64,000 nucleotides of DNA from an uncultured Nitrospiraceae bacterium. GTDB taxonomy: Bacteria > Nitrospirota > Nitrospiria > Nitrospirales > Nitrospiraceae. The notes beneath the pieces were generated by a model, which did no database searches, had not been told where the DNA came from, and worked only from the letters and a program-made list of their open reading frames with translations. Positions 1 through 18,755 of this stretch are shown piece after piece. The DNA is taken from the NCBI GenBank assembly GCA_963730935.1, contig CAVSTP010000004.1, positions 1,600,001 to 1,664,000 on the forward strand. The letters are read 5' to 3'. Within the stretch, counting starts at the first letter, position 1. Each line of letters begins with the position of its first letter. A program made the translations under genes and the position numbers.

Positions 1-1
1 C

Positions 2-1189
2 TTGACGCTGTTTCTTATCTTGCGTGCCTTTGCAGCAGGTTGTGCGGCGGTCACCGGAATGGAAGTGATTTCGAACGGCGTCAAAGCCTTTCGTCCACCG
101 GAATCCGGGAATGCCGCCACCACCATGGTGTGGATGTCCGTCATCCTCGGATCGCTGTTCATGGGCATCAGCTTGATGGCCTACCATTACGGCATCATCC
201 CGAAGGAGGATGAGACCGTGGTCTCACAACTGGCCCGCCTGACGTTCGGGAGCGGTCTTGTCTATTACGTGATCCAAGTGGGAACCATGATGCTACTCGT
301 GCTGGCGGCCAACAGCGCCTTCGCCGGCTTCCCTCATTTGGCATCTATTTTGGCGAGGGACGGGTTTATGCCCCATCAGATGGCCACGTTCGGCGATCGC
401 CTGGTCTTCTCCAACGGCATCATTATTTTAGGATTCTTTGCCTGTGTTCTGCTCGTGATCTTCCAAGGCGACACCCACGCCCTCATTCCACTGTATGCCA
501 TCGGCGTCTTCGCGTCGTTCACCTTGTCCCAGGCCGGGATGGTCCGCCGTTGGCTGGCGAAGAAGGGATTGCACTGGCGGAAGAAATTGATCGTCAACGG
601 AATCGGCGCCATCACGACGGGCATCGCCACAACCATCATCGCCTCGACCAAATTCATGCAAGGGGCCTGGATTGTCTTTTTGCTCGTCGCAGCCCTCATT
701 ATGATGTTCCGGGCCATCCGCTCTCACTATAAGGCCGTCGCCGAGCAAGTCCAATTGACCCGGGACGCCCGTCCACCGCGCCCGCGCCGTAACCTCATCC
801 TCATTCCCATTGGCGCGGTCAACAAGGCGGTCGTGCGAGCCGTCGATTATGCGAGAAGCCGGGGAGGCGAAGTGCGTGCGGTGCTCATCGATGTAGACAA
901 AGAAGAAACGGCCGTTGTGGAAATGAAATGGGCGCAATGGGGCTGCGGCGTTCCGTTGATCGTATTGCCCTCTCCCTACCGGTCGATCTTGGGCGCGCTG
1001 ATGGACTATGTTGAAGAGAACCTCGACAAAGATCCGGAATGCTGGATTACTGTGGTCCTGCCGGAGATTCTGCCGGCCCGCTGGTGGCAGAATATTTTGC
1101 ACAATCAACGGGCGTTGCTGCTCAAAGGCGCCCTCTTGTTCAAAGATCGCGTCGTGTTGACCGACGTCCCCTTCCACCTGACGAGGTAA
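2..1189 (+). CDS. APC-family permease, YdaO/KimA-like (5' end outside window)
   Basis: Multiple TM helices with AGCAAVTGMEVISNG, AANSAFAGFP, LIPLYAIGVF and a cytoplasmic C-domain (SPYRS...WWQNILHNQ) typical of the YdaO/KimA family. Confidence 0.85.
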   Translation: MTLFLILRAFAAGCAAVTGMEVISNGVKAFRPPESGNAATTMVWMSVILGSLFMGISLMAYHYGIIPKEDETVVSQLARLTFGSGLVYYVIQVGTMMLLVLAANSAFAGFPHLASILARDGFMPHQMATFGDRLVFSNGIIILGFFACVLLVIFQGDTHALIPLYAIGVFASFTLSQAGMVRRWLAKKGLHWRKKLIVNGIGAITTGIATTIIASTKFMQGAWIVFLLVAALIMMFRAIRSHYKAVAEQVQLTRDARPPRPRRNLILIPIGAVNKAVVRAVDYARSRGGEVRAVLIDVDKEETAVVEMKWAQWGCGVPLIVLPSPYRSILGALMDYVEENLDKDPECWITVVLPEILPARWWQNILHNQRALLLKGALLFKDRVVLTDVPFHLTR

Positions 1190-1191
1190 TC

Positions 1192-2310
1192 ATGAGCCAA
1201 CGGCCATACAGTGTGAGGCATCTAGGGCGTTGGACTTCCTATGTGGTCCTGTGCGGGAGCGTGCTCATGGCTAGTGCGCCGGTGCACGCCTTTACGATCA
1301 CGGAACCTGCGCCAGGTGCGAAGCTGGCAGCCGGACAAACGGTGACCGCTCACGTGGACCTCGGAAACGACATTGGTATCGTCAAGGTCCGGTATTATTG
1401 GTACCGTGAGCAGGACGAGACTCTCGTTCAGCAAGATGAAACCGACTCCGGACCGTCGAAGTCCGGTGCCAAAATCTCAATGGACAAGTTCCTTCAAAAG
1501 GACAGCGTGGTCGGCGGTTCCGTGGTCTCGCTGCCGGTGCTCGTCTCTACCGGAGACATGGACCCGGCCTTCGGCGGTCCTCTCAAGGTTCCCTCGGATG
1601 CCATCGGACCAATGCGGTTGCTCGCCGTGGCCGATATCTCGCGCGGCCGGCTCGGCACCAGAACCGTTTTCGACGAGATCACCGTAAATAGCGAACCCAA
1701 AGCTCAGCTTCAGACCATTGATTTTGAAACGGACAAGCCCTTGCTGCTCGGACGGGAGGGTCAATCCGCCACTTACGGCCAGGTGGATGTCCTCGGCAAG
1801 ATCTTCGAACTTCCGGTCGTCGGCGATTTTGACGACAGCGTGTCGAGACCGCTCACAGCCCCGTCATCGGGAACCAGCTATCACTCGTCCAATGACAAGG
1901 TCATCCAGGTCCTCCCGGACGGCATGCTCAAAATCGTCGGGAATGGGAAAACCGTGTTGACGGTGAAGAACCGGGGGAAAGAAGCATCGTTGGACGTCCA
2001 CGTGGCGGTGGGTGACGAACCTAACGAGCCGCCGGTTGCAGTGGCAGGAGCCGACCGCACGGTGAAATCGGGCGCGAAGGTGGAGTTGAACGGCTTGGGC
2101 AGCCACGACCCTGAAGGCGAAGCGCTATTTTATACCTGGAGCCAGGTCCGGGGAGCGAAAGTGCCGCTCCTGGATCTCAACATGCCGAAGGCTTCCTTCC
2201 TCGCACCCTCGGTCTCAGAGCCGAAACTCTTCCGCTTCAGATTGCGAGTGACGGATAAAAAGGGGGCGGACAGCATGCCGGCGTTTGTGGACGTGACGGT
2301 CGAACCATAG
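1192..2310 (+). CDS. Secreted Ig-like/PKD-domain protein
   Basis: ATG 2 nt after the upstream stop; signal peptide ending APVHA; Big-2-like segment (YHSSNDKVIQVLPDG) and C-terminal PKD-like domain (NEPPVAVAG...SHDPEG...YTWSQ...FRLRVTD). Confidence 0.75.
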   Translation: MSQRPYSVRHLGRWTSYVVLCGSVLMASAPVHAFTITEPAPGAKLAAGQTVTAHVDLGNDIGIVKVRYYWYREQDETLVQQDETDSGPSKSGAKISMDKFLQKDSVVGGSVVSLPVLVSTGDMDPAFGGPLKVPSDAIGPMRLLAVADISRGRLGTRTVFDEITVNSEPKAQLQTIDFETDKPLLLGREGQSATYGQVDVLGKIFELPVVGDFDDSVSRPLTAPSSGTSYHSSNDKVIQVLPDGMLKIVGNGKTVLTVKNRGKEASLDVHVAVGDEPNEPPVAVAGADRTVKSGAKVELNGLGSHDPEGEALFYTWSQVRGAKVPLLDLNMPKASFLAPSVSEPKLFRFRLRVTDKKGADSMPAFVDVTVEP

Positions 2311-2319
2311 ACGCCCCTA

Positions 2320-2447
2320 ATCAGAGAACTTGCGGGTCCTGTCACGGCAAACAGCCCCACCATGCTCGCACCCCCGCCCGGTGGGGGTCCCTCGCTCCGC
2401 GCGGTGGGGCGCCCCGTTTGCCGCGCCACCCGCAGATAGCGGCTGAT
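2320..2447. repeat. Long imperfect palindrome (REP/MITE-like element or structured RNA) between convergent genes
   Basis: Nested complementary arms ATCAG/CTGAT, TGCGGGT/ACCCGCA, CGGCAAAC/GTTTGCCG, GCCCCACC/GGTGGGGC, ACCCCC/GGGGGT. Confidence 0.7.
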
Positions 2448-2588
2448 ATTTCCTGCCACCCTATCTCGAAGTTAATGCGACTGTTAACCCACAAGTCACC
2501 GGCACACATTAACAGAGCAAGAGAGTTGAAGCAGATGGCGAGAGAGAGCTAGATGGTAACGACACCCCCAGAGAACCCGGAGAGGAGC

Positions 2589-4157
2589 TTATTTTGAGCC
2601 GAGCTCTCGCTCGAAGCCCGGCAAGATGGCTTTAAAGAACGCGTTTTGGATGAGGCCGATGACGATCTGGATAATCTCGGTCTGAGGCCGGTTCGTCCGT
2701 CCCGAAACATTCGCTTTGGTCGCGACTTCCTGACGCGGGACGTTTTCCAGGAAGGCCGAGAGGTCTTCGATCGCGCCCTCTTTGACCTTGTCCAACGCCG
2801 GCTTGTCGCGATCCTGTGCCTGATCATAGACCTTGAGTTTCCTGACCAACGGCTTCACATAGCCTCGGATGGAACCGTCATCGAGTCTGATATCCGCGTA
2901 GCAGGAGAAGACTCCTCCCACGACATCAAACTTGCCATAGGCTCGCAACAGATTATTCATTGAGCGGATTTGCGTGTCGGCGATTTTGATTTTGAGCTCA
3001 ATATCCGGAGAGTCCCCTGGCGGACGCATGATGGCGGAGATCTGGGTTTCACCCGTCCCCATGAATTTCCCGCGGATAGCCATCGACGCCGGCCCCTCGC
3101 GCAACTGGTTGCTGTAGTGCTCCAGCGTGACGTCGGCATCCGTGAGGTAGACCCGGTACTCAGGCGTCGCGGCCTGATTGACAAACCCGAGCTCGGCACC
3201 GTCAATGCGGATCTGCTCGACGCGCACGAGGGTGTCTTCGTTCGCATTGATCGATTTCGCGGTGTTGACCGTCGCCTTGGCTCTTGCGGCTTCTGCCCGT
3301 TTCGTCTGTGCGGCATGCACGTAGTCCATATGCAGCCCGTCGATAGTGAGGTGCTTCAAGTTCACCACCTTCACCGACGGACTATATTCGACCGACCCTT
3401 CCGCCGACATCGTGCCGCCGCTGAGCTGCACGTTGTATCGGGCCGTCACCGGAATCAATGTCCCTAACGAGACGCCGTCCATCACGATATCGGCTTTCAC
3501 GGCTACGTGCGGTTCGGCGAGAAAGTCGGCGCGTCCGTCGAGGCGGATTGTTCCGGATTCGAAGAGTGTGCCTTTCAACCAGAACTCCGAGGGATAGTCC
3601 TGACCGGCAGATTGTACGTTGCGGATGTTGGAGGCATAGAGATTCATGTGGCGTATGCGAAGCGGCTGTTCGGGCTTCGCTTCATCGAGGTATATCAGTT
3701 CGGCGTCCGTGATCGTGACCTGATTGATCTTGAACGGGTACACGCTTTCCACCGCATCCTGCCAGCCGCGGTCTTTGACAGCCCTGTCGCTGCCGGTTTC
3801 CTGCCTCGCGAGTGTCCTGGTAAGGTGAAATCTGGGCCGTTCGATCTCATGGTCGTTAACCAAACGTCCGGACAAGAGCGCCCTCCAATGGACGCTCGCC
3901 GACCAGCGTGCAACCGTGGCCACCGGAGGATCCGGCTCACCCGTACGCACGAGTCGGATGTCGTGCAGATCCAGTGAAGCTCCGATAGGATGAAAATCCA
4001 GCGCGCCGATGTGCACCCTGTAGCCCTTGAGGCTCCGGTTCATTTTCTGCTCCACATAGGCGCGCAATGGCTCATCGATCAACAGGGCGGCCGCAAGAAG
4101 CACCACCAAAAGTGCGGCGACTCCCACCAGGAGCTTTGTCACAACACGCGTCACCAT
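2589..4157 (-). CDS. DUF748/AsmA-like protein
   Basis: N-terminal TM anchor, two repeated beta-rich modules, C-terminal LIQNAFFKAILPGF typical of DUF748 proteins. Confidence 0.75.
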   Translation of the reverse strand: MVTRVVTKLLVGVAALLVVLLAAALLIDEPLRAYVEQKMNRSLKGYRVHIGALDFHPIGASLDLHDIRLVRTGEPDPPVATVARWSASVHWRALLSGRLVNDHEIERPRFHLTRTLARQETGSDRAVKDRGWQDAVESVYPFKINQVTITDAELIYLDEAKPEQPLRIRHMNLYASNIRNVQSAGQDYPSEFWLKGTLFESGTIRLDGRADFLAEPHVAVKADIVMDGVSLGTLIPVTARYNVQLSGGTMSAEGSVEYSPSVKVVNLKHLTIDGLHMDYVHAAQTKRAEAARAKATVNTAKSINANEDTLVRVEQIRIDGAELGFVNQAATPEYRVYLTDADVTLEHYSNQLREGPASMAIRGKFMGTGETQISAIMRPPGDSPDIELKIKIADTQIRSMNNLLRAYGKFDVVGGVFSCYADIRLDDGSIRGYVKPLVRKLKVYDQAQDRDKPALDKVKEGAIEDLSAFLENVPRQEVATKANVSGRTNRPQTEIIQIVIGLIQNAFFKAILPGFERELGSK

Positions 4158-4232
4158 AGCCGCCCTCCGCCCCCAGTGTAGCGGCCGGTAGACCTCGGCG
4201 GAGCTAGGGGAACATGCAGGTTGGGTGGCTGC

Positions 4233-5795
4233 TTACGCTTGGTCGAGCCTCATCGGACCGTACGTGTGGCGGGCTTGACGGAGTTCGAAGAGATGCCGAC
4301 GCAAGGAGGGGCCATGCAGCGACGCAAGCACTGTCCGGCGGTGGTGAGACATGTGCTGTTCCGCCTTCGCAATGGCCTCTTCGAGGTGTTTAACCAGACG
4401 GGCCCCCGAGGCTGTCATCCATTTGAGATGCCGCCCGGCATACTCGAGGTCGCCCAGCGAGTAGCGGACTGATTCGATTTCTTCCAGACAGCGGAAGCGT
4501 GCGCGAAGGAGGTGCCGCGCAGTGAGCCCTGCTTTCCGCCATTGCCTTTTGCCCTGCGCAGTCTCGGCCCATGCCGACAGCCTCGCGAAGAGCAGCGCAC
4601 CCATCGTGAAGGTAAACGTGGCATGAAGGATCCCCCGAATGGGCCGCAGGCTCCTCCGCCAGGGCGAGTAAAAGATCTGCTGGTTGCGGTCGCCGTGATA
4701 GAGGACATGCTTCCGCAAGAGCAGATTGAGATGGTGATGACTGTTTTCATGGATCAAATCGTCGATGAGGTCGAGGTTGTCACGGTCGAAGCAGTTGATG
4801 AATGAAAGGCCGGGCCGATGACGGTAACTAAAGCTGACGATGCCGGGAGCCTTGAGCGGTATGACACGTGACGTGAGGAGCCTCAGCAATGCGTGGCCTT
4901 CCGGCCAGGCCAGTTCGATCGTCTGACATGCCCGGCCGAGACGGGCGATCTGCTTGGTCTCGGTGGCTGAAAGCGCCTTCGGCTGACGGGCCTTCCCATA
5001 ACGGAGCGTAGGGCCGACGGTGAGGAATCCCGACGGAACGGCGAGGGCGTCAGTCGCTTCCCGGCGCGACCAGTGCCAGTGCATGGCAGTTCCTCGCCAT
5101 GCGCAGAGAGGAAATGACCGGCCAGCGTGCAGTGCGATCTCATTGTTTCGCAGCACAAAGGTCACACGCCGCGACCGTCGCCCAATGGCCCTTCGGACGG
5201 AAGCGGGTGCAATCAGGGCGCTCCCGTCGATGCCGACCGGAACGGTATACGACTGTTCGGCCCGTTCATACGAGGACTCGAGGCGGCCGGACACGGCCCA
5301 GGAACGCCGACCCTGCCGATTTACCCATTCGAGCGCCCGTCGCGGATCGAAGAAGAGCGATTCCTGGGTGATCTCGAGGGACAGTCGCTTGCACAACCAT
5401 TGCAGCCGTCCCGTCAGTCCATAGGACTGCGCCCGCCCGCGTGGAAATAATTCGTCAAGGTAGCTGTTTTCGAAAAAGTTTTCCTCACATTCCGCATAAA
5501 GCTGCTCGGCAAAGCCTCGCTGATCGCGATCGTGCCGGATCTGCACCAGAAGGTCGAGAAAATAGACCAGGTCGTTCAGCGCTTCAATCCATCCGACCAC
5601 TTTCCAATTCGAATAGAGCGTGCGATCCAAGCTCTGCGCCAGAAACCGAAAATAGTCGACCGGAAGGTCGAGCTGATCCGCCAGATCTCCATAGTGACGC
5701 GCGATGTCTCGGCAGAGTCCAAGCAAGAGACTGCGCATCGATTGGCGGAATTCGACCTGCAAGCGGCTGAGTCCCGCCGCGCCGAGCCACGACAT
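4233..5795 (-). CDS. HEXXH-motif (alphaKG-HExxH type) protein, putative peptide/protein hydroxylase
   Basis: IHENSHHHL followed by FYSPWRRSLRPIRGILHA: HExxH, PWRxxxRP and a downstream His. Confidence 0.8.
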   Translation of the reverse strand: MSWLGAAGLSRLQVEFRQSMRSLLLGLCRDIARHYGDLADQLDLPVDYFRFLAQSLDRTLYSNWKVVGWIEALNDLVYFLDLLVQIRHDRDQRGFAEQLYAECEENFFENSYLDELFPRGRAQSYGLTGRLQWLCKRLSLEITQESLFFDPRRALEWVNRQGRRSWAVSGRLESSYERAEQSYTVPVGIDGSALIAPASVRRAIGRRSRRVTFVLRNNEIALHAGRSFPLCAWRGTAMHWHWSRREATDALAVPSGFLTVGPTLRYGKARQPKALSATETKQIARLGRACQTIELAWPEGHALLRLLTSRVIPLKAPGIVSFSYRHRPGLSFINCFDRDNLDLIDDLIHENSHHHLNLLLRKHVLYHGDRNQQIFYSPWRRSLRPIRGILHATFTFTMGALLFARLSAWAETAQGKRQWRKAGLTARHLLRARFRCLEEIESVRYSLGDLEYAGRHLKWMTASGARLVKHLEEAIAKAEQHMSHHRRTVLASLHGPSLRRHLFELRQARHTYGPMRLDQA

Positions 5796-5857
5796 CGTCT
5801 TCCTCGATGAATGGAACGGCGACTCTACCGGAGCGCGGCGGTGGCCGCAAGGAGAGG

Positions 5858-6499
5858 CTAGAACGATTTCGAGGGAAGATAGCCGGCGTCGTCGAGGCGG
5901 AGCTCGCGAACATGTCCCATGAAGTGGCGTGTGAATGACCGTTGGACCGAGTCTTCAAGCACCGGGCTTGTTCCTGTCACGATGAGAAAGGGTAGTTCAT
6001 CCTTCCACAACAAGTGCCCATCACTGTCGATCATGTAGAGAAACAGACGCCGCCGTTCATCGGTTTTCCACCCCCACTCGCTTGACCGTAACGACGTAGC
6101 GCCGATGACATATCCGTACAGAACCGCATCCACGGCAAGGCCACGTGACAGCTCACGCGCCCACAGTGCTCGCTCCCGATCTGGTGCGGCAACCCTCAAC
6201 GGACGCTGTGGCTCAGTGGGCGTCACGACTCGCAAGGCGGTTTCCCCTCTCAGAAGCTTGGTCAACCTTGCACCCATCTCCTCATCGCCATCGATGGGCA
6301 TCAGCGCCACGCTGTTCAAGGAAAGACCTTCAACAACCGCGGTGAAATGTTCCGTCGAGACCCATGATTCTTCGAAGGCCTGAAACTTGACATCGCTCGC
6401 TCTCATGGAATCGGCACCAACCGCTGCAACCCATGCGGCGGCGAGACAACCCTGTTGTAGGAAGGTCACTGATAGGATCAGGACCCCCAGAATCGTCAT
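5858..6499 (-). CDS. Hypothetical lipoprotein
   Basis: Hydrophobic N-terminus ending LQQGC; alpha/beta body (LAVDAVLYG) loosely like LpoB/CsgG-type folds; start could also be 6532 or 6538. Confidence 0.6.
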   Translation of the reverse strand: MTILGVLILSVTFLQQGCLAAAWVAAVGADSMRASDVKFQAFEESWVSTEHFTAVVEGLSLNSVALMPIDGDEEMGARLTKLLRGETALRVVTPTEPQRPLRVAAPDRERALWARELSRGLAVDAVLYGYVIGATSLRSSEWGWKTDERRRLFLYMIDSDGHLLWKDELPFLIVTGTSPVLEDSVQRSFTRHFMGHVRELRLDDAGYLPSKSF

Positions 6500-6544
6500 G
6501 TTGCACTCTCGAGCAGTACCTAATAGGTTCATGTCCACAATTCA

Positions 6545-6561
6545 CGCAAAAGGCATACCCT
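6545..6561 (-). promoter_or_regulatory. Possible sigma-54 (-24/-12) promoter
   Basis: Minus strand GGGTATGCCTTTTGCG gives GG-N10-GC with TTGC at -12, directly upstream of the lipoprotein gene. Confidence 0.45.
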
Positions 6562-6673
6562 TGGCCGTTGAGACGATGTAGTGGCCTACCTCCTGGTTTT
6601 TTCAGTAGTTCATGAACGCGCCTTCCCCACCTGGGGCAGTATTACCCTCCCGACGTACGCAAAAGGAGGCAGC

Positions 6674-6917
6674 ATGCACGGATTAAAGTAACGTGGCCTC
6701 CGCCTATGGCGCAGCGGGATCCTTGGTTCTTGTGCTGCTGTGGGTCTACTATTCGGCGCAGATCCTCTTATATGGTGCCGAGTTCACCCAGGTGTATGCG
6801 AACCGTATCGGTGATCGGATTGTTCCGGCTCCCGACGCGCGAGTGACGGATCCTCGGAAAGCGGATGCCGATCGGGCTGGACAAAAGCCGGCCCACGCTC
6901 CAGATCGTGCCGCCTAG
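6674..6917 (+). pseudogene. YihY/BrkB-family membrane protein remnant (internal deletion)
   Basis: AGGAGG plus ATG (MHGLK*) joined out of frame to the YihY C-terminal signature SNVASAYGAAGSLVLVLLWVYYSAQILLYGAEFTQVYA. Confidence 0.8.
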
Positions 6918-6977
6918 CTGGCCCGACAATGATTCATCCTGTAGGCCTGACCTCTCCGGACCCATCTTCATTCACGG

Positions 6978-7567
6978 ATGCCAAAGTCTCCCTTGCTTCC
7001 GCGTCTGCTGCAGGCGGGAAAAAACCGGATTTGGTATTGCCGCGAATCGCGCGTCTTCCGGTACCCGCTCGACCACACGCCGCTGCCACTCCCCACCATC
7101 TTTCGAAGAAACTGCCTCGGCCGCCCGATGCCTATCGGACGGTGGCAGTCGAGCGAGGGCAGAGGGCGTTCACCTATCACCTACGTCGAAGGCGGCCGCC
7201 TCCTGCGCTATTGCTGGCTCATCGAGCGCCAGACACGCGGGGAAGATGGTGGGTGGAGCACGTATGCTTTCCTCCTCCCGACACGGCCGTCCTATTTGAT
7301 CACTTTACGCATCCTCTCGCGAGAGGCCGCGGACTGTACCTTCAAGCCATATGCCGGCTCTTACACGACGCACGGGGAAGTGGCAGGCGCCCGCCAGGCC
7401 TATGTCACTTTCGGCTCAAACGGCCCATCGCGGCACGTGATCGAAAAAGTGGGATTCCAGCAGTGAGATTCCAGCACGAAGGTAGCTTGTTCAAGGAGCG
7501 ACGGCTGGTTTGGTCAAGACCCTATGCGGTCAGCGCAGGTGGTCCGTTCCCGACCGCGTTGCTCTGA
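6978..7567 (+). pseudogene. Frameshifted GNAT-family acetyltransferase
   Basis: GNAT-like pieces split across two frames (GRLLRYCW; LFDHFTHPLARGRGLY; SNGPSRHVIEKVGF); small duplications at two frame breaks. Confidence 0.7.
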
Positions 7568-7591
7568 GGGCTGTATATGCCACCGGCAGCT

Positions 7592-7855
7592 TCAAGTTGC
7601 ACGCGTCGAGCGCGCGCGCTGACGCTGACGACGCGTCCGGGCTGGAGCGAGAGACGGGGCAGGGGGACCGGACGCTGCGCTGTTCGGCAATCGCTTGACG
7701 GACAACAAGAGCTGTGCCCGCCGGATTGCGTCCAGCAACGCTTGTCGTTCCACTTCCAGACGCTTAACGCGCGGCGAGCGGTTCACAAAACGCTCGGCGG
7801 CGTTGGTAATCCCTTCAAACGATTCCCATGGATCCTGTGAAGGACGAGGTTTCAT
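7592..7855 (-). CDS. Small hypothetical basic protein
   Basis: Purine-rich RBS (GGAGAAGGGAAG) before ATG; helical-looking core; no family recognised. Confidence 0.35.
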   Translation of the reverse strand: MKPRPSQDPWESFEGITNAAERFVNRSPRVKRLEVERQALLDAIRRAQLLLSVKRLPNSAASGPPAPSLAPARTRRQRQRARSTRAT

Positions 7856-8125
7856 AGGCTTCCCCTTCTCCCTACCTGCCAACCCGCCAACAAGTGAACT
7901 AAAAGGTTCCCTAGTTGAGAGACCGAGTGCTCAAGTCCTTAGGCTAATGGCTTCATACGCCAGGCGGTCGACACCCAAGAATCAGGGGTGTGCCTAGTGG
8001 TTGGGCTCACTCCGAGGCACTAGAGTCAGAGATTGATACGCCCTCGCCGTCTTGGCAGCTGAAGGCTCTCGAGCGTTTTCACGGCAATCCGGGCAGATCA
8101 TTGTCTCATCTAAATGGAGGTTTCT

Positions 8126-9643
8126 ATGAGGTACGCCAACTGTATGAAGACTGCGATCGGCGGTCTTTCTCTTGTTCTACTCTTGTCGGCCTGTTCCTCC
8201 GGATCCAAGTCGAAGACCACGGCGGGTCCTCCGTCGCAGGACACTTCGCGGGGGGGCAGGGCTGCTCTTTCCCCGCCCAGCGATCTGCCGCGAAGCGACG
8301 TGGTCAGCGATCGTGGCACCACTCCAGGCAAAACGCATGATTCGACCAACCGAGCAGGGCTCTCGGATCGTTCGCCGGAAATCGCGGCAGCCTGCCCGTC
8401 GAAAGTCGACGCTGACGGTAAGGTCGTATTCGATGATCCCACCTGTCCGGATCGCTATCGCCGCCAGGCGGGAACCACCGCAGCAGGCGGTGCTGCAGGA
8501 CTGGCGGCAGCCTGTTCTTCGCACAACGATGCCACCGGCAAGATCATCTACGATGATCCGGCTTGTCCGGATCGCTATCGCAGCCAGGTGGGTACCACCT
8601 CCGAAAAAGAACGTGCGGGACTGGCGGCAGCCTGTTCTTCGCACAACGATGCCACCGGCAAGATCATCTACGATGATCCGGCTTGTCCGGATCGCTATCG
8701 CAGCCAGGCGGCTGCGATGTCATCTATCCGTGAAGCCCGTGTCAGACTTTCGCGGGCCGCCGGCATCAAGGTATGGGACACGGCGCCTGGTGCGGGCACG
8801 AAGACGGGAACGCAGGTTTCTCCTTCCTCGGCACAGGGCGTGGATCCTCAGTGTATCGATGAGCTTGAGAGACAATGCGGAGAGGTTCAGCCTGGCAGCG
8901 GGCGTATCCAACAGTGTTTTGACGACAAGATCAACAACTTTTCACCGATGTGTCAGGAGAAGCTGAAGGAGGGAAAGGCCGCGATCGCTGCCGCTATATT
9001 GACGAACAGGCATGACAAGGAAGTATCAGGGAATGCCAGTGATAGCCGCCAGACGGGAACTAAGGCTGATTACGCGGGAGTGGACCCACGCTGTCCTTCG
9101 ACACTCGATGCGAAAGGCAATGTGATCTATGCTGACTCAGGCTGCGCACACCGGTACTACTATCAGACAAAGGAAAATGCCTATTACGATCGCTATGCGG
9201 ATAAAGCAGCTAAACACGCCCGGGCGGCAGAGATCGCTGCCATCCAGGGTAACGTGCCGGACATGATCCAAAACGCCGAACAGTCATTGGACCATGCGAA
9301 GGAGGCGCGGCGCTCCGGCAATAATCCTGATCTGGCTGCAGGCATCGCGGCCCTGAGGCAGTCGATCGCACTGGGACAAAGCAACGAAGTGGCTCGTTCG
9401 ACGTCATCCCCAACGAGTACTGCCGCCGCCGCGACGCCGCGCACCGTCAAGGGCGAGTTGTCCCAAAAGAAGGACGTGACGAGAGCCGATGGCGGCGAGT
9501 CCTACGTCTTACGGGACCCGGAAAACCGCGAAATTCCAATCTCGTTGTCCCCCGAAATGAGCCGTCAGGTTCAGGTGGGAGATGTCGTGGAAGCGCAGGT
9601 TGACTCGAACGGGCAAGTGACGTCGATTACCAAGGCCCAGTAG
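8126..9643 (+). CDS. Mosaic lipoprotein with Cys-pair repeats, a Cys-rich (GLG1-like) repeat and an SmbP-like domain
   Basis: GGAGG RBS; lipobox LLSAC; four C-x15-C units; CIDELERQC...C...C module; helical segment alignable to SmbP by eye. Confidence 0.75.
   Translation: MRYANCMKTAIGGLSLVLLLSACSSGSKSKTTAGPPSQDTSRGGRAALSPPSDLPRSDVVSDRGTTPGKTHDSTNRAGLSDRSPEIAAACPSKVDADGKVVFDDPTCPDRYRRQAGTTAAGGAAGLAAACSSHNDATGKIIYDDPACPDRYRSQVGTTSEKERAGLAAACSSHNDATGKIIYDDPACPDRYRSQAAAMSSIREARVRLSRAAGIKVWDTAPGAGTKTGTQVSPSSAQGVDPQCIDELERQCGEVQPGSGRIQQCFDDKINNFSPMCQEKLKEGKAAIAAAILTNRHDKEVSGNASDSRQTGTKADYAGVDPRCPSTLDAKGNVIYADSGCAHRYYYQTKENAYYDRYADKAAKHARAAEIAAIQGNVPDMIQNAEQSLDHAKEARRSGNNPDLAAGIAALRQSIALGQSNEVARSTSSPTSTAAAATPRTVKGELSQKKDVTRADGGESYVLRDPENREIPISLSPEMSRQVQVGDVVEAQVDSNGQVTSITKAQ
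8384..8708 (+). repeat. Intragenic tandem repeat, period 120 bp, 3 copies
   Basis: 8498-8588 is identical to 8618-8708 (91 bp); a diverged copy lies at about 8384-8468. Confidence 0.95.
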
Positions 9644-9647
9644 GACG

Positions 9648-9680
9648 AGGGGCGGAGCCGGTATCACGGCTCCGCCCCCC
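9648..9680. terminator. GC-rich hairpin between convergent genes
   Basis: GGGGCGGAGCCG-gtatca-CGGCTCCGCCCC; no strong U-tract. Confidence 0.6.
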
Positions 9681-9695
9681 TCTCGCGATGGTGAC

Positions 9696-10529
9696 CTATT
9701 TGTCTGCCCCAATGGGAGGCAGATTGATGCCGAACCGTTCGAGTCCCATGATCACGGTCAGGGCTGACGGTGAGTGCTGAACAATTTCCTTCTGCACTTC
9801 GATGCGGCGCAGGTCTACAAATTCCGGGGCAGTCAGGCCGAGCGATTCTCGATAGGCCCGGTCGGCAATACCCCGCTGCTTTTCGGCCTTTTCGCGGGCC
9901 TCTTCCGCCTTCTGGAACTCCACCATCGTGATTTTGCGCTGTTCCTGCACAATCGTTTGTGTGGTCTGCTCCACGACGCCCTTGGGCGGTAGGATGCTGC
10001 CGACGACGACGCGATTCAACCGCACCGGGATGTTCTGTTTTTCGATTAATTTGGTCTGCACTTCTCTTGCAATGGCTTCCTGTAATTTTGTGCGCGTGGT
10101 CGGATCGGTGGTCAATTGGAAGAGCGGATATTTCTGCACCTCTTCCCGGACAAACGTCCGGAAGGCTTCCTTCATGTTATTGTGATACCAATTCGGGCCA
10201 TAGCGCGCGATCAATTCCGGTGAACGACCTTCCACGACGTTCGCGATCATGAAGGCGTCAAAGGAGACCGGGGCGTTTTCGGCGGAGATGATGTCGAAAT
10301 GTTCAGAGTACTGGACCGGCCGGACGTCTACATCCACCACGTGCGTAGTCGGCGCCAGCCAGACACGTCCTGTCTTTGATGGAACCGGATCCACGCCGCC
10401 ATGCCCGAAGAAGAACGGCTGCTCCACGAGCACGCCTTCGTGTCCCGCATCGATCGCCGCACAGCCTGACAGCCCCAGCAGCCCAACTCCTCCTACGATT
10501 GCCAGAATGCGTCCCATTGGTCCTTTCAT
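9696..10529 (-). CDS. SPFH/Band 7 domain lipoprotein
   Basis: Lipobox LSGC, then IDAGHEGVLV, SPFH core and a C-terminal coiled coil. Confidence 0.85.
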   Translation of the reverse strand: MKGPMGRILAIVGGVGLLGLSGCAAIDAGHEGVLVEQPFFFGHGGVDPVPSKTGRVWLAPTTHVVDVDVRPVQYSEHFDIISAENAPVSFDAFMIANVVEGRSPELIARYGPNWYHNNMKEAFRTFVREEVQKYPLFQLTTDPTTRTKLQEAIAREVQTKLIEKQNIPVRLNRVVVGSILPPKGVVEQTTQTIVQEQRKITMVEFQKAEEAREKAEKQRGIADRAYRESLGLTAPEFVDLRRIEVQKEIVQHSPSALTVIMGLERFGINLPPIGADK

Positions 10530-10694
10530 AGCCCCCCTCCTCTGCGTGTGTTCCGATCGATGGTTCGGACGGCGTTGTGGAATGGTTACAGTCTAGGCTC
10601 CGGTCATCTGGTAGGTTTACCTTACGAAGCGCTCACGATCAAAGTCAAACCGAAGCGGGTCCGGAAAACGAGGAGAGACAAGGGTTGCAGAAGA

Positions 10695-11105
10695 TTATGA
10701 GATTCCGGCTTGCCGTTGGAGCCAACGCACGTAGCGGATGATCTGCTCGACGTCTGCAGGGGACACCGCATCGATTTTCGGCATGTTACCGAACTCCCAG
10801 TGATGGGCCTTCACGCCGAACTCCGCAGCGCGCAAGAAAGCCGCGTCGCCATGATGATTCGGCTCATAGATCTTATGGACCAGAGGAGGACCTTGCTGAG
10901 TTCCCGTAGCCTGTGGACCATGGCAGGCGGAGCAATGGGCGTTGAACTTGGCCTCGCCAACCTGCAATTCCGACGGAACCGTGCCCCCACCGACCGCGGA
11001 CTTCGGCTGAGAGGAGTCGCATCCGGCCACCGCAGACAGGCCGAGCGTAAGCCCAAGGATGGACAACGACATGGAAAGCGTCTGTCTGAGGAAGACTTGG
11101 ATCAA
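10695..11105 (-). CDS. Monoheme cytochrome c, probable lipoprotein
   Basis: VAGC lipobox; CSACH; GPPLVHKIYEPNHHGD; GNMP distal Met. Confidence 0.9.
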   Translation of the reverse strand: MIQVFLRQTLSMSLSILGLTLGLSAVAGCDSSQPKSAVGGGTVPSELQVGEAKFNAHCSACHGPQATGTQQGPPLVHKIYEPNHHGDAAFLRAAEFGVKAHHWEFGNMPKIDAVSPADVEQIIRYVRWLQRQAGIS

Positions 11106-11266
11106 CGCTGCTCTCCTTGCCGCCCAGCGTTCGTCTCGAACTGCTCGCGCAGCATTTTCTGGGTCCGCTGGAGCGTCATGCGGCGATAGAGGCGCGCGCC
11201 GATCGGCGCGATGACGATCAGTCCGATCGTCAAATACATGAAGAACTCTTCCGGCGACACGCTCAT
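11102..11266 (-). CDS. 54-aa single-TM small protein (absent from ORF track)
   Basis: MSVSPEEFFMYLTIGLIVIAPIGARLYRRMTLQRTQKMLREQFETNAGRQGEQR; its TGA overlaps the TTG start of the cytochrome c gene. Confidence 0.65.
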   Translation of the reverse strand: MSVSPEEFFMYLTIGLIVIAPIGARLYRRMTLQRTQKMLREQFETNAGRQGEQR

Positions 11267-11329
11267 GCTTCCAACCGCTCCATGCTCAGGAGTCAGGCCG
11301 ATGGTGCACGCCCGACGAACGTAGTCCGC

Positions 11330-12031
11330 TCAGAGTACTGCATACCTGGTAGGATCCTCAACCCCGGCCTTCGCAAATCCTTCTCGTCGGATGACACAAC
11401 TATCACACCGTCCGCATGCGAGGTCGCCAACCGGATCGTAGCAGCTATGGGTGAGGTGCAACGGGGCGCCGAGCCTGACGCCGGTTCGAATGATGTCGGC
11501 CTTGGTCATGTCAAGCAAGGGGGCACAGACCTGCAGCGCGGTTCCCTCCACACCGGACTTCGTTCCTGCAGCGACGGCCCCTTCGAATGCCCGGATGAAT
11601 TCCGGCCGGCAGTCCGGATAGCCGGAATAATCCAACACGTTGGCCCCGAAATAAATCAAGGACGCGCCCTCGGCTTCAGCGTGGGCCGCAGCAAGAGAGA
11701 GAAAAATCAGGTTCCGGCCGGGCACATAGGTAACTGGAATCCCGCGACTCCGTTCCTCGCTGCGACGGTCTTTTGGAACCGGCAACTCGCCCGTCAACGC
11801 GGAGCCGCCCAGCGCCCGCAGATTTACAGTAAGGACGGTGTGCTTGGCCGCGTGCATGGCGGCGGCCACCTGGCGAGCCCGTCCCACCTCGACGGCATGA
11901 CGCTGGCCGTAATCGACGGTCAACCATAAGAGCTCATGCCCGGCCTCCCGCGCCAGGGCGGCGGTCACGGTCGAATCAAGTCCCCCGCTCGCAAGAACGA
12001 CAGCGCGGTTGGAAGTTCCAAGAGGGGCCAT
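11330..12031 (-). CDS. queC: 7-cyano-7-deazaguanine synthase
   Basis: SGGLDS, YGQRH, TYVPGRN, YPDCR, SCY...CGRCDSC. Confidence 0.97.
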   Translation of the reverse strand: MAPLGTSNRAVVLASGGLDSTVTAALAREAGHELLWLTVDYGQRHAVEVGRARQVAAAMHAAKHTVLTVNLRALGGSALTGELPVPKDRRSEERSRGIPVTYVPGRNLIFLSLAAAHAEAEGASLIYFGANVLDYSGYPDCRPEFIRAFEGAVAAGTKSGVEGTALQVCAPLLDMTKADIIRTGVRLGAPLHLTHSCYDPVGDLACGRCDSCVIRREGFAKAGVEDPTRYAVL

Positions 12032-12125
12032 TGACGTGAGCCTCGTGGCGACCGTGCCAACAGGAAGGTGTGCGCGCCGGCGGATTGATGCCAGTGCAGG
12101 CGTCAGGCGGGAGGGGCAGAAGGAC

Positions 12126-12683
12126 CTAGTCGCGCTCTTCTTCTTTTTCGATCTTTTCCAGAAGTTCCTCTTTGGCCTGACACTCGACGCAGAGTTTTGC
12201 AAAGGGCACGGCTTCCAAACGCCGCTCGCTGATTTCGACGCCGCACTCGGCACAGATCCCGTATGTCCCTTCGTTGAGCCGGGTAAGGGCTTCATCGATG
12301 GCCTGCCGCCGTCGATTGCGCATTTCCATGAGCGATATGCCCAACTCACGGTCCAGATCCATGAGGGCCTGATCGCCGACATCTCGGGCCGATTCGAGGC
12401 GGCGCTGCTGATCTTCCGTCAAGGACTGTCCCAGACTGCCTTCGATTTCCTTGAGGATTTCGTGGCGTTTGCGCAGCAGCATGTGCTGCAGCGCTTCGCG
12501 GCGTTGCTCCCGGGCTTCACGCTCCTTTGCGGATTCCTTCGGCTTTGCGGCCAGCGGTGACACGGCCATACTTACCGGCTTCTCAATGACGGCCGCCTCC
12601 GCCGGTCTGACTTTTGGCACAGGCTTGGTTGTGGGTTTCGTCTTATTCATAGTTTTCTTCTTCGGAGGTGTTCTCGTCGCCAT
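12126..12683 (-). CDS. dksA: TraR/DksA C4 zinc-finger protein
   Basis: Coiled coil with DVGDQA; YGICAECG...RLEAVP...LCVECQ. Confidence 0.85.
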   Translation of the reverse strand: MATRTPPKKKTMNKTKPTTKPVPKVRPAEAAVIEKPVSMAVSPLAAKPKESAKEREAREQRREALQHMLLRKRHEILKEIEGSLGQSLTEDQQRRLESARDVGDQALMDLDRELGISLMEMRNRRRQAIDEALTRLNEGTYGICAECGVEISERRLEAVPFAKLCVECQAKEELLEKIEKEEERD

Positions 12684-12792
12684 CGCGTTGTCCTCTCCCC
12701 TGGGTAAACGCCGGACGGCAAAAAAAGTTCGGCATCTATAACACGGCTGCTCCGAGTTTGACAAGGGGTTGTAGGAGGACGACCGGCGCCCC

Positions 12793-13317
12793 CTAGGGAT
12801 AGATGATCGTGGAGTGCACGGGATAACCGATCAGCTTTTGCCGGCCGAGCAGGCTTTTCAGCTCGACCAGAAAATCGAGCCCGACGATTTCGCCGCCCAA
12901 CTGCCTGACGAGCGAGACGGTGGCGGCAGCGGTGCCCCCCGTGGCAAGCAGGTCGTCGACGATCAGCACGCGTTCGCCCATCCCGATTGCGTCGCGATGG
13001 ATGGCGAGGGAGTTGGAGCCGTATTCGAGGCTATATTTGACTTCAAAGCTGTCGGCAGGCAGCTTCCCCGGCTTTCGAACCGGGACGAAGCCCGCATTGA
13101 GCCGTTGCGCCAAGACTCCCCCATAGATGAAGCCGCGAGATTCGATGCCCACCACCTTGGCGACCCGCTGCTCTCCATAATACGCGACCAGCCCGTCGGC
13201 GATCGCCGAGAAGGCCTTGCTATCTTTGAGCAGCGTCGTGATGTCGTAGAAAAGAATGCCGGGTTTGGGGAAATCGGGAACTTCGCGGATAAGCGATCGA
13301 TACTCAGCAGCGGTCAT
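12793..13317 (-). CDS. apt: Adenine phosphoribosyltransferase
   Basis: PDFPKPGILFYDIT, ESRGF, RKPGKLP, VDDLLATGGT. Confidence 0.97.
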   Translation of the reverse strand: MTAAEYRSLIREVPDFPKPGILFYDITTLLKDSKAFSAIADGLVAYYGEQRVAKVVGIESRGFIYGGVLAQRLNAGFVPVRKPGKLPADSFEVKYSLEYGSNSLAIHRDAIGMGERVLIVDDLLATGGTAAATVSLVRQLGGEIVGLDFLVELKSLLGRQKLIGYPVHSTIIYP

Positions 13318-13321
13318 TGGC

Positions 13322-14278
13322 TCAGAGCAAGTCCGATTGTGTCAGCGTTTTGCGCTCGATGGTATGGCGCAGACGGCTCAAGGCGGCCATTTCGATTTGC
13401 CGGACGCGTTCGCGGGTCAAGCCCATGTCACGTCCGATCTCCTCAAGCGTCCGCGCCTCGCTACCGTCGAGGCCAAACCGCGACACAATAACAGTTTGCT
13501 CTTTCTCAGGCAACTCCTTCACCCAGGTCATCATTTCGGCCCGCCGCATCACTCCTTCCGCAGTATCCGCAGGCGAGACGCTCATCGGATCTTCGATCAC
13601 GTCGCGAAGGAAGGTGTCGGCCCGATCGTTGATCGGACTGTCGAGCGAACAGGTGGTGCGGACGACCTGCTTCAGATCGAGCACTTCCTCCTCGGTCGTT
13701 TTCATTTTCTGCGCGACCTCTTCGGCGGACGGCTCCCGCCCCAGTTCCTGGACAAGCGCTTCGACCTTGTTCAGATAGCGGTTCAAGCGCTCGACGACGT
13801 GAACCGGTAGACGCACGAGCTTGCCCTGATTAATGATCGCCCGCTCGATGTATTGCCGGATCCACCAGGAGGCATAGGTGCTGAAACGAAAGCCCCGTTT
13901 GTAGTTGAACTTCTCGACGGCCTTGATCAGCCCCAGATTCCCCTCTTCGACGATATCCGAGAATGGAAACCCCCGATGAATGTAGCGCTTGCCGATGCTG
14001 ATGACGAGGCGCAAATTGGACTCGATCATTTGCTGGCGAGCCTGTTCGTCTCCGGCCATGACCCGTTTGCCCAGCTGTTGTTCTTGCTTGAAGGTCAGCA
14101 GTGTCGAGCGGCGGATCTCGCGGAGATAGCTCTTGAGGGTATCCAGACCTTCCGACCGGCCACGGGATTTCTCGTCGTCGGAAGCCTGGTCGAGGTCGGC
14201 GGCATCCTCCTCATCATGGTCCGAGTGGTGTCTTCGCGCTTCACTCTGGTCTGAGAAATCGTCCTGTCTGCTCGCCAT
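13322..14278 (-). CDS. Sigma-70 family factor, RpoS-like/group 2 (no region 1.1)
   Basis: [37 protein letters not shown]...TRERVRQIE. Confidence 0.92.
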
Positions 14279-14303
14279 TCCGACCTCAGCTCAACACGGC
14301 CCA

Positions 14304-14597
14304 CTAATACCAGACGGCAAAGTCTGCGTGGCGACCTGTCGCCGGTACCCATTCGACGCGGACATCGGTAACCCTCGAAGCCGGCGGACCGACCTTCAGC
14401 GCCGCGATCAGCGACATGATTTGATCCTTCGCACCTTCGGCTTCCAATTCGACTCGTCCATCCTCGCAATTTCTCACACCGCCGACCAGACCGCGGTCGG
14501 TAGCGGCGCGGACGGTGAATGCCCGATAGCCGACGCCTTGGACTCGTCCTGCAACCGAGATCCTGGCCCGAACGGTAGAGTCACTCGCATCAGTCAT
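14304..14597 (-). CDS. acyP: Acylphosphatase
   Basis: GRVQGVGYR, GGVRN..DGRVE, GPPASRV. Confidence 0.95.
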   Translation of the reverse strand: MTDASDSTVRARISVAGRVQGVGYRAFTVRAATDRGLVGGVRNCEDGRVELEAEGAKDQIMSLIAALKVGPPASRVTDVRVEWVPATGRHADFAVWY

Positions 14598-14829
14598 CGT
14601 CCGGCCACTCGCTCGACGTAAGGGATCCTCTCACACCTGGATAAACGCGTCACGTGATTTGCAATTCTATGCGCGGAAACTTTGTATGGATTGTACGTGT
14701 CTTCAATCAGAGGGAGCAATGACGACCGATACTCGGAGTCCGCGACGGGACCTGTGTGCTACAATCGCCGGCCGTTGTCTTCGGACGATCAGCATACTTC
14801 ATCTCTCAATCCTGCGAAGCCCGGGCAAC

Positions 14830-16290
14830 ATGGCACTGAGCGCTACCGAAATTGAGCAGGTGCTTCACGAGATCGCTCCCCACCTTGTTCAGGGACGGAT
14901 TCAAAAGATACACCAACCCGGCGATCGCCTCCTGATCTTCGACATTCGCATGCCAGGCGAAACGCATAGGTTGCTCATTTCCTCCGAACCTGATACCGCA
15001 CGACTACATCTGCTGTCCCGCCCATTGACAAACCCGGCCAGTCCTCCGTCGTTTTGCCAATTCCTTCGCGCACAGGTTCAAGGCGCCCGACTCACGGAGA
15101 TGCAGCAACTCGGACATGACAGGATTGTCACGATGACGGTGGCGACCAGGCACGGGCCCAGAACCATCGTCTGCGAATTCACCGGGCAGCACGCCAATGT
15201 CCTCCTTCTGGATGAACGGCGCGATATTTTGCGAGATCTCAACCGGCAGCGAGAGCTTGTCGGTCGTCTGTACGAAGCGCCTCCGCCGCGCCGGTCCACC
15301 CAGGAGAAGGCCCCTCGCTTCAATCCACAGGGAGCCACCCACCGTTTTCCGGTGTCTCAGGCGATTGAAGCGCATTATCAGGACAAGGAACGAACGCTGG
15401 TGGGAGAACGCGCGCAACAGGAGCGGCTGCGCGTGCTCAAAAAATCGCTCGCAAAAACGCTGCGCCGGATCGATGCATGGCGGCAGGATCTCACCAAGGC
15501 CGCTGCCTACCGCAACTACGCACGGTACGGCGAGCTGCTCAAGGCGAACTTGACGTCCACCACCGCAGGCATGAACCGGATCACGCTCATCGATTATTAC
15601 GATCCGTCGCTTCCTGAAGTCACTCTCCCGCTCGACCCGACAAAGTCAGCCCTTCACAATATGAACGAGTATTTCAGAAAGCATCGCAAGCACCTGTCAG
15701 CCGAACGAGAATTGCCTCCCCGAATCGCCGCCGCCGAACAGGAAATCGAGGCCTTGCAGCGGGAGATCACATCCATCAAGGAAGGCACCTGGGCGGCCTC
15801 TCTGCCCACGAGCCCCGCTCCCTTGACCGGCAAGACCGACTCGAGCCTCCGGCGATCGGCTCACAAGCGAAAAGGTCCGTTTCGGCGGTTCATGTCCGCC
15901 GACGGTCTGCCCATTTTCGTCGGACGCAACGCCCAAGAGAACGAGGAGCTGACATTTCGTCTGGCAAAGAGCGACGACTTGTGGCTCCACGCCAGAGGCG
16001 CTGCAGGGTCTCACGTCGTCGTACGACTGGCCAAGGGCGCTGATCCACCGCCGGAGACCTTACGGGATGCGGCGACGCTCGCCTTGCTCTATAGCGACCT
16101 GAAGAAAAGCGGGAAAGGCGAAGTCATCTACACGAGGCGCAAATGGGTGAAGGCTGCCAAAAGAGAGGCGCCTGGGGCCGTGCTGGTGACCCATGAGCAG
16201 TCGATCCACGTCCAACTGGATCGCAAGCGACTGGACACTCTCAAGGCGCGCAACGAAACTGATCCCCCGCAGAATATGACCTTTCGCTAG
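14830..16290 (+). CDS. rqcH: Ribosome quality control factor RqcH/NFACT (FbpA family)
   Basis: GRIQKIHQP, PPSFCQFLR, VGRNAQENEELT, DLWLHARGAAGSHVV. Confidence 0.9.
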   Translation: MALSATEIEQVLHEIAPHLVQGRIQKIHQPGDRLLIFDIRMPGETHRLLISSEPDTARLHLLSRPLTNPASPPSFCQFLRAQVQGARLTEMQQLGHDRIVTMTVATRHGPRTIVCEFTGQHANVLLLDERRDILRDLNRQRELVGRLYEAPPPRRSTQEKAPRFNPQGATHRFPVSQAIEAHYQDKERTLVGERAQQERLRVLKKSLAKTLRRIDAWRQDLTKAAAYRNYARYGELLKANLTSTTAGMNRITLIDYYDPSLPEVTLPLDPTKSALHNMNEYFRKHRKHLSAERELPPRIAAAEQEIEALQREITSIKEGTWAASLPTSPAPLTGKTDSSLRRSAHKRKGPFRRFMSADGLPIFVGRNAQENEELTFRLAKSDDLWLHARGAAGSHVVVRLAKGADPPPETLRDAATLALLYSDLKKSGKGEVIYTRRKWVKAAKREAPGAVLVTHEQSIHVQLDRKRLDTLKARNETDPPQNMTFR

Positions 16291-16355
16291 GTAAACGGCT
16301 GTTTCTGCGCTAGGCTAAGTCGTCATCGAGTGTTTCACGTAAGAGGGAGGTCTCG

Positions 16356-16871
16356 ATGCCTCACTCCCCAACGTCGCCGGCACACACCCAAAATCCAACC
16401 GTCCTTGTCGTGGACGATGATGCCGCTACGATCGTGCTCTGCAAAAGAATCCTCGAGCAGGCTGGATACTCCGTGCTCTCAGCTTCAGGGAGTTCAGAAG
16501 CGCTCAAACTCTGCAAAGGGCACCAAGGATCGATTGACCTCTTGGTGACCGATCTGGTGTTGCCCCCGCCTGGATTCTCCTTTGCCTCCAGCGATAATGA
16601 ATTCCCGCATGTCCATGGCCACGAGTTAGCGTCCCGCGCACTCCGCATGCGGACGAATCTGCGCGTGATCCTCATGTCCGGGAACATCGACAATGACTTG
16701 GCCGGATACGGCATCCGGAAAGGCACCCTGCCCTTCCTCTCGAAGCCGTTTGATCCTCCCGCCTTCGTGTCGCTCGTGAAGGAGACGCTGAAGGCGTCTC
16801 CACCGACTCCCGAATCGTTACAGAAGGATCACTCGATAGGGACCAAAGGGGCGGACGAGTGGTTCGATTGA
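16356..16871 (+). CDS. Single-domain response regulator
   Basis: VLVVDDD, DLLVTD, ILMSG, FLSKPF. Confidence 0.9.
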   Translation: MPHSPTSPAHTQNPTVLVVDDDAATIVLCKRILEQAGYSVLSASGSSEALKLCKGHQGSIDLLVTDLVLPPPGFSFASSDNEFPHVHGHELASRALRMRTNLRVILMSGNIDNDLAGYGIRKGTLPFLSKPFDPPAFVSLVKETLKASPPTPESLQKDHSIGTKGADEWFD

Positions 16872-16874
16872 GAT

Positions 16875-16910
16875 AAAAAGAGGGTGCCATGGGAACCATG
16901 GCACCCTCTT
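16875..16910. terminator. Intrinsic terminator, probably bidirectional
   Basis: Perfect 15-bp stem AAGAGGGTGCCATGG-gaa-CCATGGCACCCTCTT; U-run on the minus strand. Confidence 0.85.
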
Positions 16911-16935
16911 ACCTGTTTTCAATCAGCGTTACAGC

Positions 16936-17277: not shown

Positions 17278-17473
17278 GTGGGGTTCCTCCTTTGAATATG
17301 ACATTGTCTTGAACACGAGGAACGGGGGAAGGAGCGGGCCGAAGACGCGAGACATGCGGCGACTTGGGTCTGACTTCCGACGAGATTCCCGGACAAGGCA
17401 ACATCCATGTTGCGGGCCTTACTTTCTTTAGTGAACTCGCTTCCTCGCGAGGCCCGTACGAAGAAGCCCTTCA

Positions 17474-17502
17474 ACCCTAGCACAGGGGGTGGTGGATTAC
17501 AA
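17474..17502 (-). promoter_or_regulatory. Sigma-70 promoter for the RRM gene
   Basis: TTGTAA-N17-TAGGGT with TG extension. Confidence 0.55.
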
Positions 17503-18744: not shown

Positions 18745-18755
18745 GCGGCTCTCCG

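Follow-up and report, generated by a model that had tools for sequence, protein, structure and literature searches.

A stand-alone alphaKG-HExxH protein retained as a single-copy core gene in the Nitrospiraceae

Introduction

Each of the alphaKG-HExxH proteins characterised in the literature cited here acts, as far as the available parts of those papers describe, on the precursor of a neighbouring RiPP gene cluster. What a member of this family may do outside such a cluster is the question raised by P0001, a 520-aa protein encoded at positions 4233..5795 on the minus strand of a 64-kb window, the whole stretch of DNA that was analysed, by a stand-alone gene with a single copy in the genome. 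It is considered below from its motifs and predicted fold, its neighbourhood, its distribution and the other genes of the genome with which it might cooperate.

Results and Discussion

Motifs and family assignment

The gene starts with an ATG, with a GAGGA ribosome-binding-like site (5801..5805, minus strand) five nucleotides upstream. In profile searches, residues 288-427 of its product score 70.9 bits with the family model TIGR04267, whose cut-off is 40; this is the sole match of the model in the genome, and Pfam gives no match to the protein. The three motifs from which the initial annotation had proposed membership of the alphaKG-HExxH family are all intact (HENSH at residues 349-353, SPWRRSLRP at 377-385 and ILHA with His391), and the family profile bears the proposal out. 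H349 and H353 of the first motif (4737..4751, minus strand) are putative iron ligands accompanied by an invariant Glu, while H391 (4623..4625, minus strand), located in the sequence GILHA where ChlH has GLLHA, is the putative third. The arginines R380 and R384 of the second motif (S377 to P385; 4641..4667, minus strand) are candidates for binding alphaKG, since the co-substrate is described as being bound by positively charged residues in the HExxH family in the available part of PMC12614342, and the VSFS strand at residues 320-323 (4827..4838, minus strand), which equals that of ChlH, may belong to the co-substrate pocket. H349, E350, H353, S377, P378, W379, R380, R384 and H391 are invariant in 38/38 close homologues, and likewise in 38/38 cross-phylum homologues. 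By profile, motifs and fold, P0001 is an intact member of the alphaKG-HExxH family.

Contigs from four RNA runs span parts of the gene and of the adjoining genes, with low depth and word shares below 0.2, and do not demonstrate its expression. A search for a sigma-70 site of the gene found none, and Rfam gave no matches within positions 1-20,000 of the window.

Predicted fold and the N-terminal half

A whole-chain AlphaFold2 model of P0001, built from 38 homologues (pLDDT 87.6), has only two Foldseek matches at E<=0.001, namely ChlH (8S5F) and SjiH (22OB). The model aligns with ChlH at Z 22.1 (rmsd 3.7, 294/320 residues, model residues 1-479) and with SjiH at Z 20.4 (rmsd 4.5, 377/409 residues, model residues 1-503), and the next row of the structural ranking falls to Z 9.0. 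Resemblance to zincin proteases, which the initial annotation had named as the observation that would speak against an oxygenase, is at a far lower level, the zinc aminopeptidases (M1) reaching Z 5.4 at most and the Foldseek values lying above E 0.5 (aureolysin, E 0.6).

The N-terminal half (residues 1-280; 4956..5795, minus strand) is composed of a helical bundle (6-160) and a beta region (166-276), and carries the conserved residues G68-W69-x-E71-x-x-N74-D75 and E109-x-x-Y112. It had been described as some 300 residues of unrecognised sequence, which holds at the level of sequence, where nothing in the PDB falls below E 0.07, but not at the level of the model, in which the first 290 or so residues can be aligned to the N-terminal regions of ChlH and SjiH. 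An N-terminal stretch of 160-260 residues ahead of the core is usual among relatives. On the strength of the whole-chain alignment, the N-half is probably an enlarged and diverged counterpart of the N-module of ChlH and SjiH rather than a new domain, and the latter possibility was set aside. Modelled separately (pLDDT 90.7), the N-half gives no structural matches at E<=0.001 and no usable matches in the Atlas; its best score, Z 8.8, is to a designed helical protein, and the sole row covering residues 1-282 is SjiH at the background level of Z 5.9 (rmsd 5.1, 191 residues aligned). The beta region may still represent a new fold.

Gene neighbourhood

As originally described, the gene is flanked by a DUF748 gene (2589..4157, minus strand) and a gene encoding a 226-aa lipoprotein-like protein (5858..6538, minus strand), which has a lipobox-like Cys and is not matched by Pfam. 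The gaps on its two sides measure 62 and 75 bp, and neither holds a precursor peptide. Across the loci of the family the DUF748 gene is a lineage-specific downstream neighbour (12/81 loci) and the lipoprotein-like gene an optional upstream one (36/81 loci). The conserved landmarks are a convergent pair downstream, encoding an APC-family permease and a PKD-domain protein (2..2310, plus strand; 53/81 loci), and a divergent NFACT/RqcH-like gene upstream (14830..16290, plus strand; 54/81 loci), located about 9 kb from the HExxH gene in the window genome.

No ORF of at least 150 aa with a CxxxCxxC motif is found within the 64-kb window, and the 25 PF04055 matches of the genome all lie outside it, in agreement with the initial annotation. 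The same holds for the family as a whole: a long ORF with CxxxCx[FYWM]C is found beside the gene in 0/160 family loci (median length 8.8 kb; 71 are at least 10 kb), while the same test is positive in 5/5 control loci with canonical HExxH genes. The gene is thereby confirmed as stand-alone, and it lacks the fused or adjoining radical SAM/SPASM enzyme of RiPP tailoring clusters of the triceptide, FxsB or His-Xaa-Ser type.

A rival reading is that P0001 could cut the peptide backbone, either oxidatively as PflC/PosC do or hydrolytically by means of its Glu, in a processing or quality control role possibly linked to the RqcH-like gene. Cleavage is a real possibility since PflC and PosC are described as cutting oxidatively, and PflC as hydrolysing truncated substrates, in the available part of PMC12636437. 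Moreover, E350 is invariant, and the shared ancestry of the alphaKG-HExxH and zincin folds is already published, which leaves room for hydrolysis by P0001. Nevertheless, ChlH also retains the Glu, the similarity to zinc metallopeptidases is slight next to that to ChlH and SjiH, and the NFACT gene is read from the other strand and was not seen near the Leptospiraceae-type copies described below, so that we regard cleavage as decidedly unlikely.

Two further features of these loci may be mentioned. A 509-aa lipoprotein-like ORF at 8114-9643 of the window contains three Cys-pair repeats (C-x-S...DDP-x-CPDRYR) and an SMBP domain. In other loci, a degenerate second copy of the 3' end of the HExxH gene (27-78 nt, 75-92% identity) is located 620-1500 bp downstream of its stop codon and brackets small cassettes (Fic/Doc, RHH, PIN, Lcl_C). 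Such copies are found in 16/71 loci, one 19-nt match being doubtful, against 1/71 for a mid-gene control; they are listed for L054, L056, L057, L066, L079, L081, L083, L084, L087, L088, L093, L101, L102, L104 and L112, are doubled in L057 and L084, and are absent from the window. The pattern suggests that the 3' end of the gene may be an integration site that is restored by arriving cassettes.

Distribution and evolution

The gene is present in 23/24 genomes of the same genus and in 94/100 genomes of the same family, with 87/90 in a separate draw, these draws overlapping and being made up of kin that are not independent. TIGR04267 gives a single match per genome in 63/66 genomes, and the named relatives are Nitrospira or Nitrospiraceae. 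A cross-phylum profile finds the gene in 54/55 genomes of the family and in 0/195 other genomes of the phylum, while a search of 110 genomes from the three other families of the order gave no full-length copy and four weak matches limited to the core. Neither the plasmids nor the viral contigs searched hold a copy. The dN/dS values are 0.10-0.18 in 7/8 pairs, one being saturated, and both halves of the protein are constrained. Pairwise identities of the HExxH gene follow those of the NFACT gene (r=0.95 for 120 pairs from 48 loci; means of 71% and 69%), and the trees of the two genes have 18/45 splits in common against 0.25 in shuffles, with conflicts at 1/14 strongly supported splits and at 7/21 with lower support. 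The trees thus agree far beyond chance, but only partially. The HExxH gene is a single-copy core gene, vertically kept and under purifying selection.

Six genomes are without the gene, five of which were checked (G168, G228, G240, G179 and G109; G238 was left out). The absences in G168, G228 and G240 resemble assembly gaps, while those in G179 and G109 look real: in the former the gene is missing in the middle of a contig at the syntenic place, and in the latter it was not found and the site is rearranged. These two cases indicate that the gene is dispensable. In four further genomes (G158, G226, G230 and G242) the matches are fragmented or limited to residues 7-193 and 235-517, which may mean that the beta region has diverged, that the gene is split or that only a fragment is present.

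Relatives in other phyla

A library-wide profile search recovered relatives of 390-500 aa that share the pattern VSxS..PG.S.IN...R...DDL.HEN.HH.LN. Source names place some of them in the Leptospiraceae and one in the Oligoflexia, the other clade labels being our own; no named classical Leptospira species occurs among 78 matches. In a core-domain tree of 38 rows the Nitrospira-type proteins are sister to the Leptospiraceae-type ones (support 98/91), the pair joins an Oligoflexia-like group (100/99), and four cluster-encoded controls, a thin outgroup, fall outside the clade. The Leptospiraceae-type homologues are also stand-alone, with a radical SAM gene in 0/9 metagenome loci. Eight of these loci reach upstream, all with the same order of a ~335-aa unknown protein, a UbiA-family protein and a thioredoxin-like protein, and STAS and QueG genes are located downstream in five, annotation being of representatives only. 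The stand-alone evidence covers the Nitrospira-type and Leptospiraceae-type loci and leaves out the Oligoflexia-like and GC-rich neighbourhoods. The ~335-aa protein, encoded three genes upstream of the HExxH gene (L125:3555-4565 and equivalents in L122-L130), has no Pfam match.

The residues lining the active site (D345-D346-L, N334, R338, N351 and N357) are kept across phyla, which would fit a common substrate and counts in favour of the preferred reading given below. A rival reading is that P0001 oxidises something other than protein, such as a tRNA or rRNA base, a lipid or a small metabolite. P0001 is strikingly basic, its pI of 10.2 lying among the highest 3.4% of the genome's 964 long ORFs, QueG and UbiA-family genes adjoin the Leptospiraceae-type copies, and PolE, of a related HExxH-like family, is described in the available part of PMC12614342 as acting on a free amino acid. 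Against this, the Oligoflexia-like sister clade is acidic (median pI 5.0), the neighbours vary between phyla, and the cited literature, as far as available, gives no non-peptide substrate for the ChlH/SjiH fold; a non-protein substrate is accordingly held to be very unlikely.

Radical SAM enzymes and precursors elsewhere in the genome

A cognate radical SAM/precursor cluster located elsewhere, the second observation that the initial annotation had set against its reading, was not found. The genome has two matches to TIGR04085 (SPASM), one being PqqE, over the cut-off and within a pqqB/C cluster, and the other a NirJ2/AhbD-like heme-type enzyme below the cut-off; no cognate SPASM maturase for P0001 is found elsewhere in this 99.89% complete genome. 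Nor was a precursor of known type found: NHLP (TIGR03793), Nif11 (PF07862) and Os1348 (NF038399) models gave no match in the genome, the TIGR03793 control also giving none, and the sole RRE over the cut-off lies within the pqq cluster. A regular-expression scan of 59,301 small ORFs for 12 precursor motifs returned only chance-looking matches and is uninformative, as it failed to recover PqqA. The cluster of pqqB, pqqC, pqqD and pqqE itself is located at G000:C4:1502572-1505600 (L023), about 100 kb from the window, and pqqA was not located.

Among the PF04055 matches, 23 were scanned against NCBIfam, 4/23 being without a match at E<=1e-30, and the other two appear MiaB/MtaB-like from their N-termini as judged by eye. 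A single radical SAM protein passes a RiPP-type cut-off, namely that of TIGR03975 (593 bits against 281.85; G000:C2:671902-673815). This methyltransferase is over the cut-off in 91/101 genomes of the family and has no evident adjoining precursor, so P0001 might act in trans with it on a common substrate, both being RiPP-type, near-universal in the family and without an adjacent precursor. However, losses of the two are uncoupled, with six of the HExxH gene and ten of the methyltransferase gene among 101 genomes and one joint loss where about 0.6 would be expected. The methyltransferase is also kept in two families without an HExxH orthologue (40/41 and 12/14 genomes, 52/55 together). It was therefore rejected as the partner, and such cooperation is the least probable of the readings considered here. 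The enzyme itself, a B12 radical SAM methyltransferase (also L219, L222), adjoins a pterin carbinolamine dehydratase gene, is nearly always present once per genome, with identities across the order of mostly 61-81% (92/101 genomes), and constitutes a second RiPP-type enzyme with housekeeping-like behaviour.

A small CxxC protein as candidate substrate

In 46/63 loci the 2.5 kb upstream of the HExxH gene include a conserved same-strand ORF of about 75 aa with a CxxC...CxxC pattern, in many cases at 100-400 bp, and the product of this ORF is a candidate substrate. The family to which it belongs is unnamed, comprises proteins of about 50-75 aa (for example L052:4780-5004 and G000:C3:450855-451037) and has a weak Zn-ribbon Pfam match below the cut-off. 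It is represented by 3-16 copies per genome in 22/22 genomes of the Nitrospiraceae, and by seven in the window genome, where a deeper profile gives ten matches at E<0.001. P0001 might hence act on dispersed small ribosomal peptides or proteins, with the CxxC protein as the prime candidate, or on an unrecognised remote precursor, as would be in keeping with the small peptides targeted by all characterised alphaKG-HExxH members in the available literature. Yet the upstream copy is absent from the window locus, the family also occurs in 31/38 genomes from families without the enzyme, and the ORF is still in place in G179, where the HExxH gene is missing. None was noticed, in ORF listings inspected by eye, beside the Leptospiraceae-type copies, and the protein resembles a folded Zn-binder more than a leader and core. 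Given also the lack of matches to the three known precursor models and the placement of the only RRE in the pqq cluster, a small-protein substrate is considered unlikely.

Proposed function

As a near-universal single-copy gene with no natural-product peptide alongside, the HExxH gene probably encodes an enzyme that modifies an ordinary cell protein. The preferred reading, to which we assign about an even chance, is that P0001, as an Fe(II)/alphaKG oxygenase, hydroxylates a residue in a conserved cell protein whose gene is unlinked. Against it weigh the RiPP precursors on which all characterised members in the cited literature act, the small ORF upstream in most relatives and the dispensability of the gene. 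It would then be a cytoplasmic mononuclear enzyme of the ChlH/SjiH fold that has departed from RiPP gene clusters and taken on a housekeeping-style modifying role. If the family alignment is a guide, the iron would be held by H349, H353 and H391, and alphaKG by R380 and R384 together with the VSFS strand; O2 would give rise to an Fe(IV)=O species, followed by hydroxylation of a side-chain C-H bond (+16 Da). The genomic context would point to a substrate that is a conserved protein encoded at a distance in the chromosome, and that may be recognised by the enlarged N-module.

A broader and more tentative proposal, somewhat less probable than even, is that the whole 'DDL-HEN' clade (Nitrospiraceae, deep Leptospiraceae, Oligoflexia-like and others) has left natural-product biosynthesis and installs an undescribed oxidation on a conserved cell protein shared across phyla, for example a component of the translation or ribosome-rescue machinery. 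If a housekeeping branch does exist, the recently described alphaKG-HExxH class would extend to ordinary cell physiology, the main nitrite-oxidising and comammox bacteria would carry an unknown protein modification, and a core gene would be mislabelled by RiPP-mining tools.

Comparison with known systems

The closest structural counterparts of P0001 are ChlH and SjiH. ChlH, the HExxH domain of ChlBH (8S5F), is reportedly the subject of a 2024 study by Morishita et al. It has the VSFS, HExxH, SPWR..LRP and GxLHA motifs in common with P0001 (phmmer E 1.8e-9; profile E 8.5e-16). The two differ in that P0001 exceeds the 368-residue ChlH construct by about 150 residues and, going by what is available on ChlH, in that ChlH forms part of a fusion with a radical SAM enzyme and requires a cyclophane-bearing precursor, whereas P0001 is unfused and encoded by a core gene without a cluster. 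SjiH (22OB/22NU) resembles P0001 over the whole chain (Foldseek E 1.9e-8; 14% identity), but the molecule name of its entry links it to a radical SAM protein, a link that P0001 does not have; a literature search for SjiH and ChlH found no SjiH paper.

A genomic contrast is provided by the control clusters, whose HExxH proteins belong to the domain family of P0001 (in G067 and G108 by TIGR04267) and are about 30% identical to it over the core only. Their genes are patchy, encode 300-450 aa and adjoin a CxxxCxxC enzyme in 5/5 cases, in contrast to the stand-alone core gene described here. Four of them, in sister-family genomes G067, G108, G157 and G165 (L264, L266, L267, L268), are clusters of radical SAM, precursor peptide, 2OG-like and HExxH genes next to an ATPase-like/HNH-like gene pair, and in three of these four a short peptide ending in ...YxRHNR lies by the HExxH gene. 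In the fifth (L265:4233-9609, G191), the CxxxCxxC radical SAM enzyme and the HExxH protein are encoded beside type IV secretion-like genes.

In terms of role, P0001 may be likened to RoxA, EpmC and the EF-Tu prolyl hydroxylase, stand-alone bacterial protein hydroxylases that each have one unlinked protein target; the analogy is one of role only, the folds being unrelated.

A search of the literature outside most subscription journals and all supplements found no account of this gene or of a stand-alone core HExxH clade, although the similarity network of PMC12636437 could include the clade. The anaerobic vent Nitrospirae genome of PMC5012046 offers, in the part available, no lead for the HExxH gene. 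Unfused alphaKG-HExxH enzymes as such are not confined to the Nitrospiraceae, since PflC/PosC (PMC12636437), PesO (PMC13060819) and BipH/BpmH (PMC12707348, PMC12257519) are, like P0001, unfused; as the available parts describe them, and by description rather than by sequence, they differ from P0001 in being clustered with a precursor, tailoring enzymes and transporters. The pfl and pes gene lists, as given in the available parts of PMC12636437 and PMC13060819, contain no radical SAM gene, which makes its absence not unusual in itself. Hence, of the initial description of P0001 as an orphan, the stand-alone position stands, while the absence of a radical SAM enzyme is neither unusual nor new. 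The published members without a radical SAM enzyme adjoin precursors, none of which was found in the gaps beside P0001, and what goes beyond that absence is a core gene passed on vertically, with sister genes outside the phylum that stand alone too in the Leptospiraceae-type loci.
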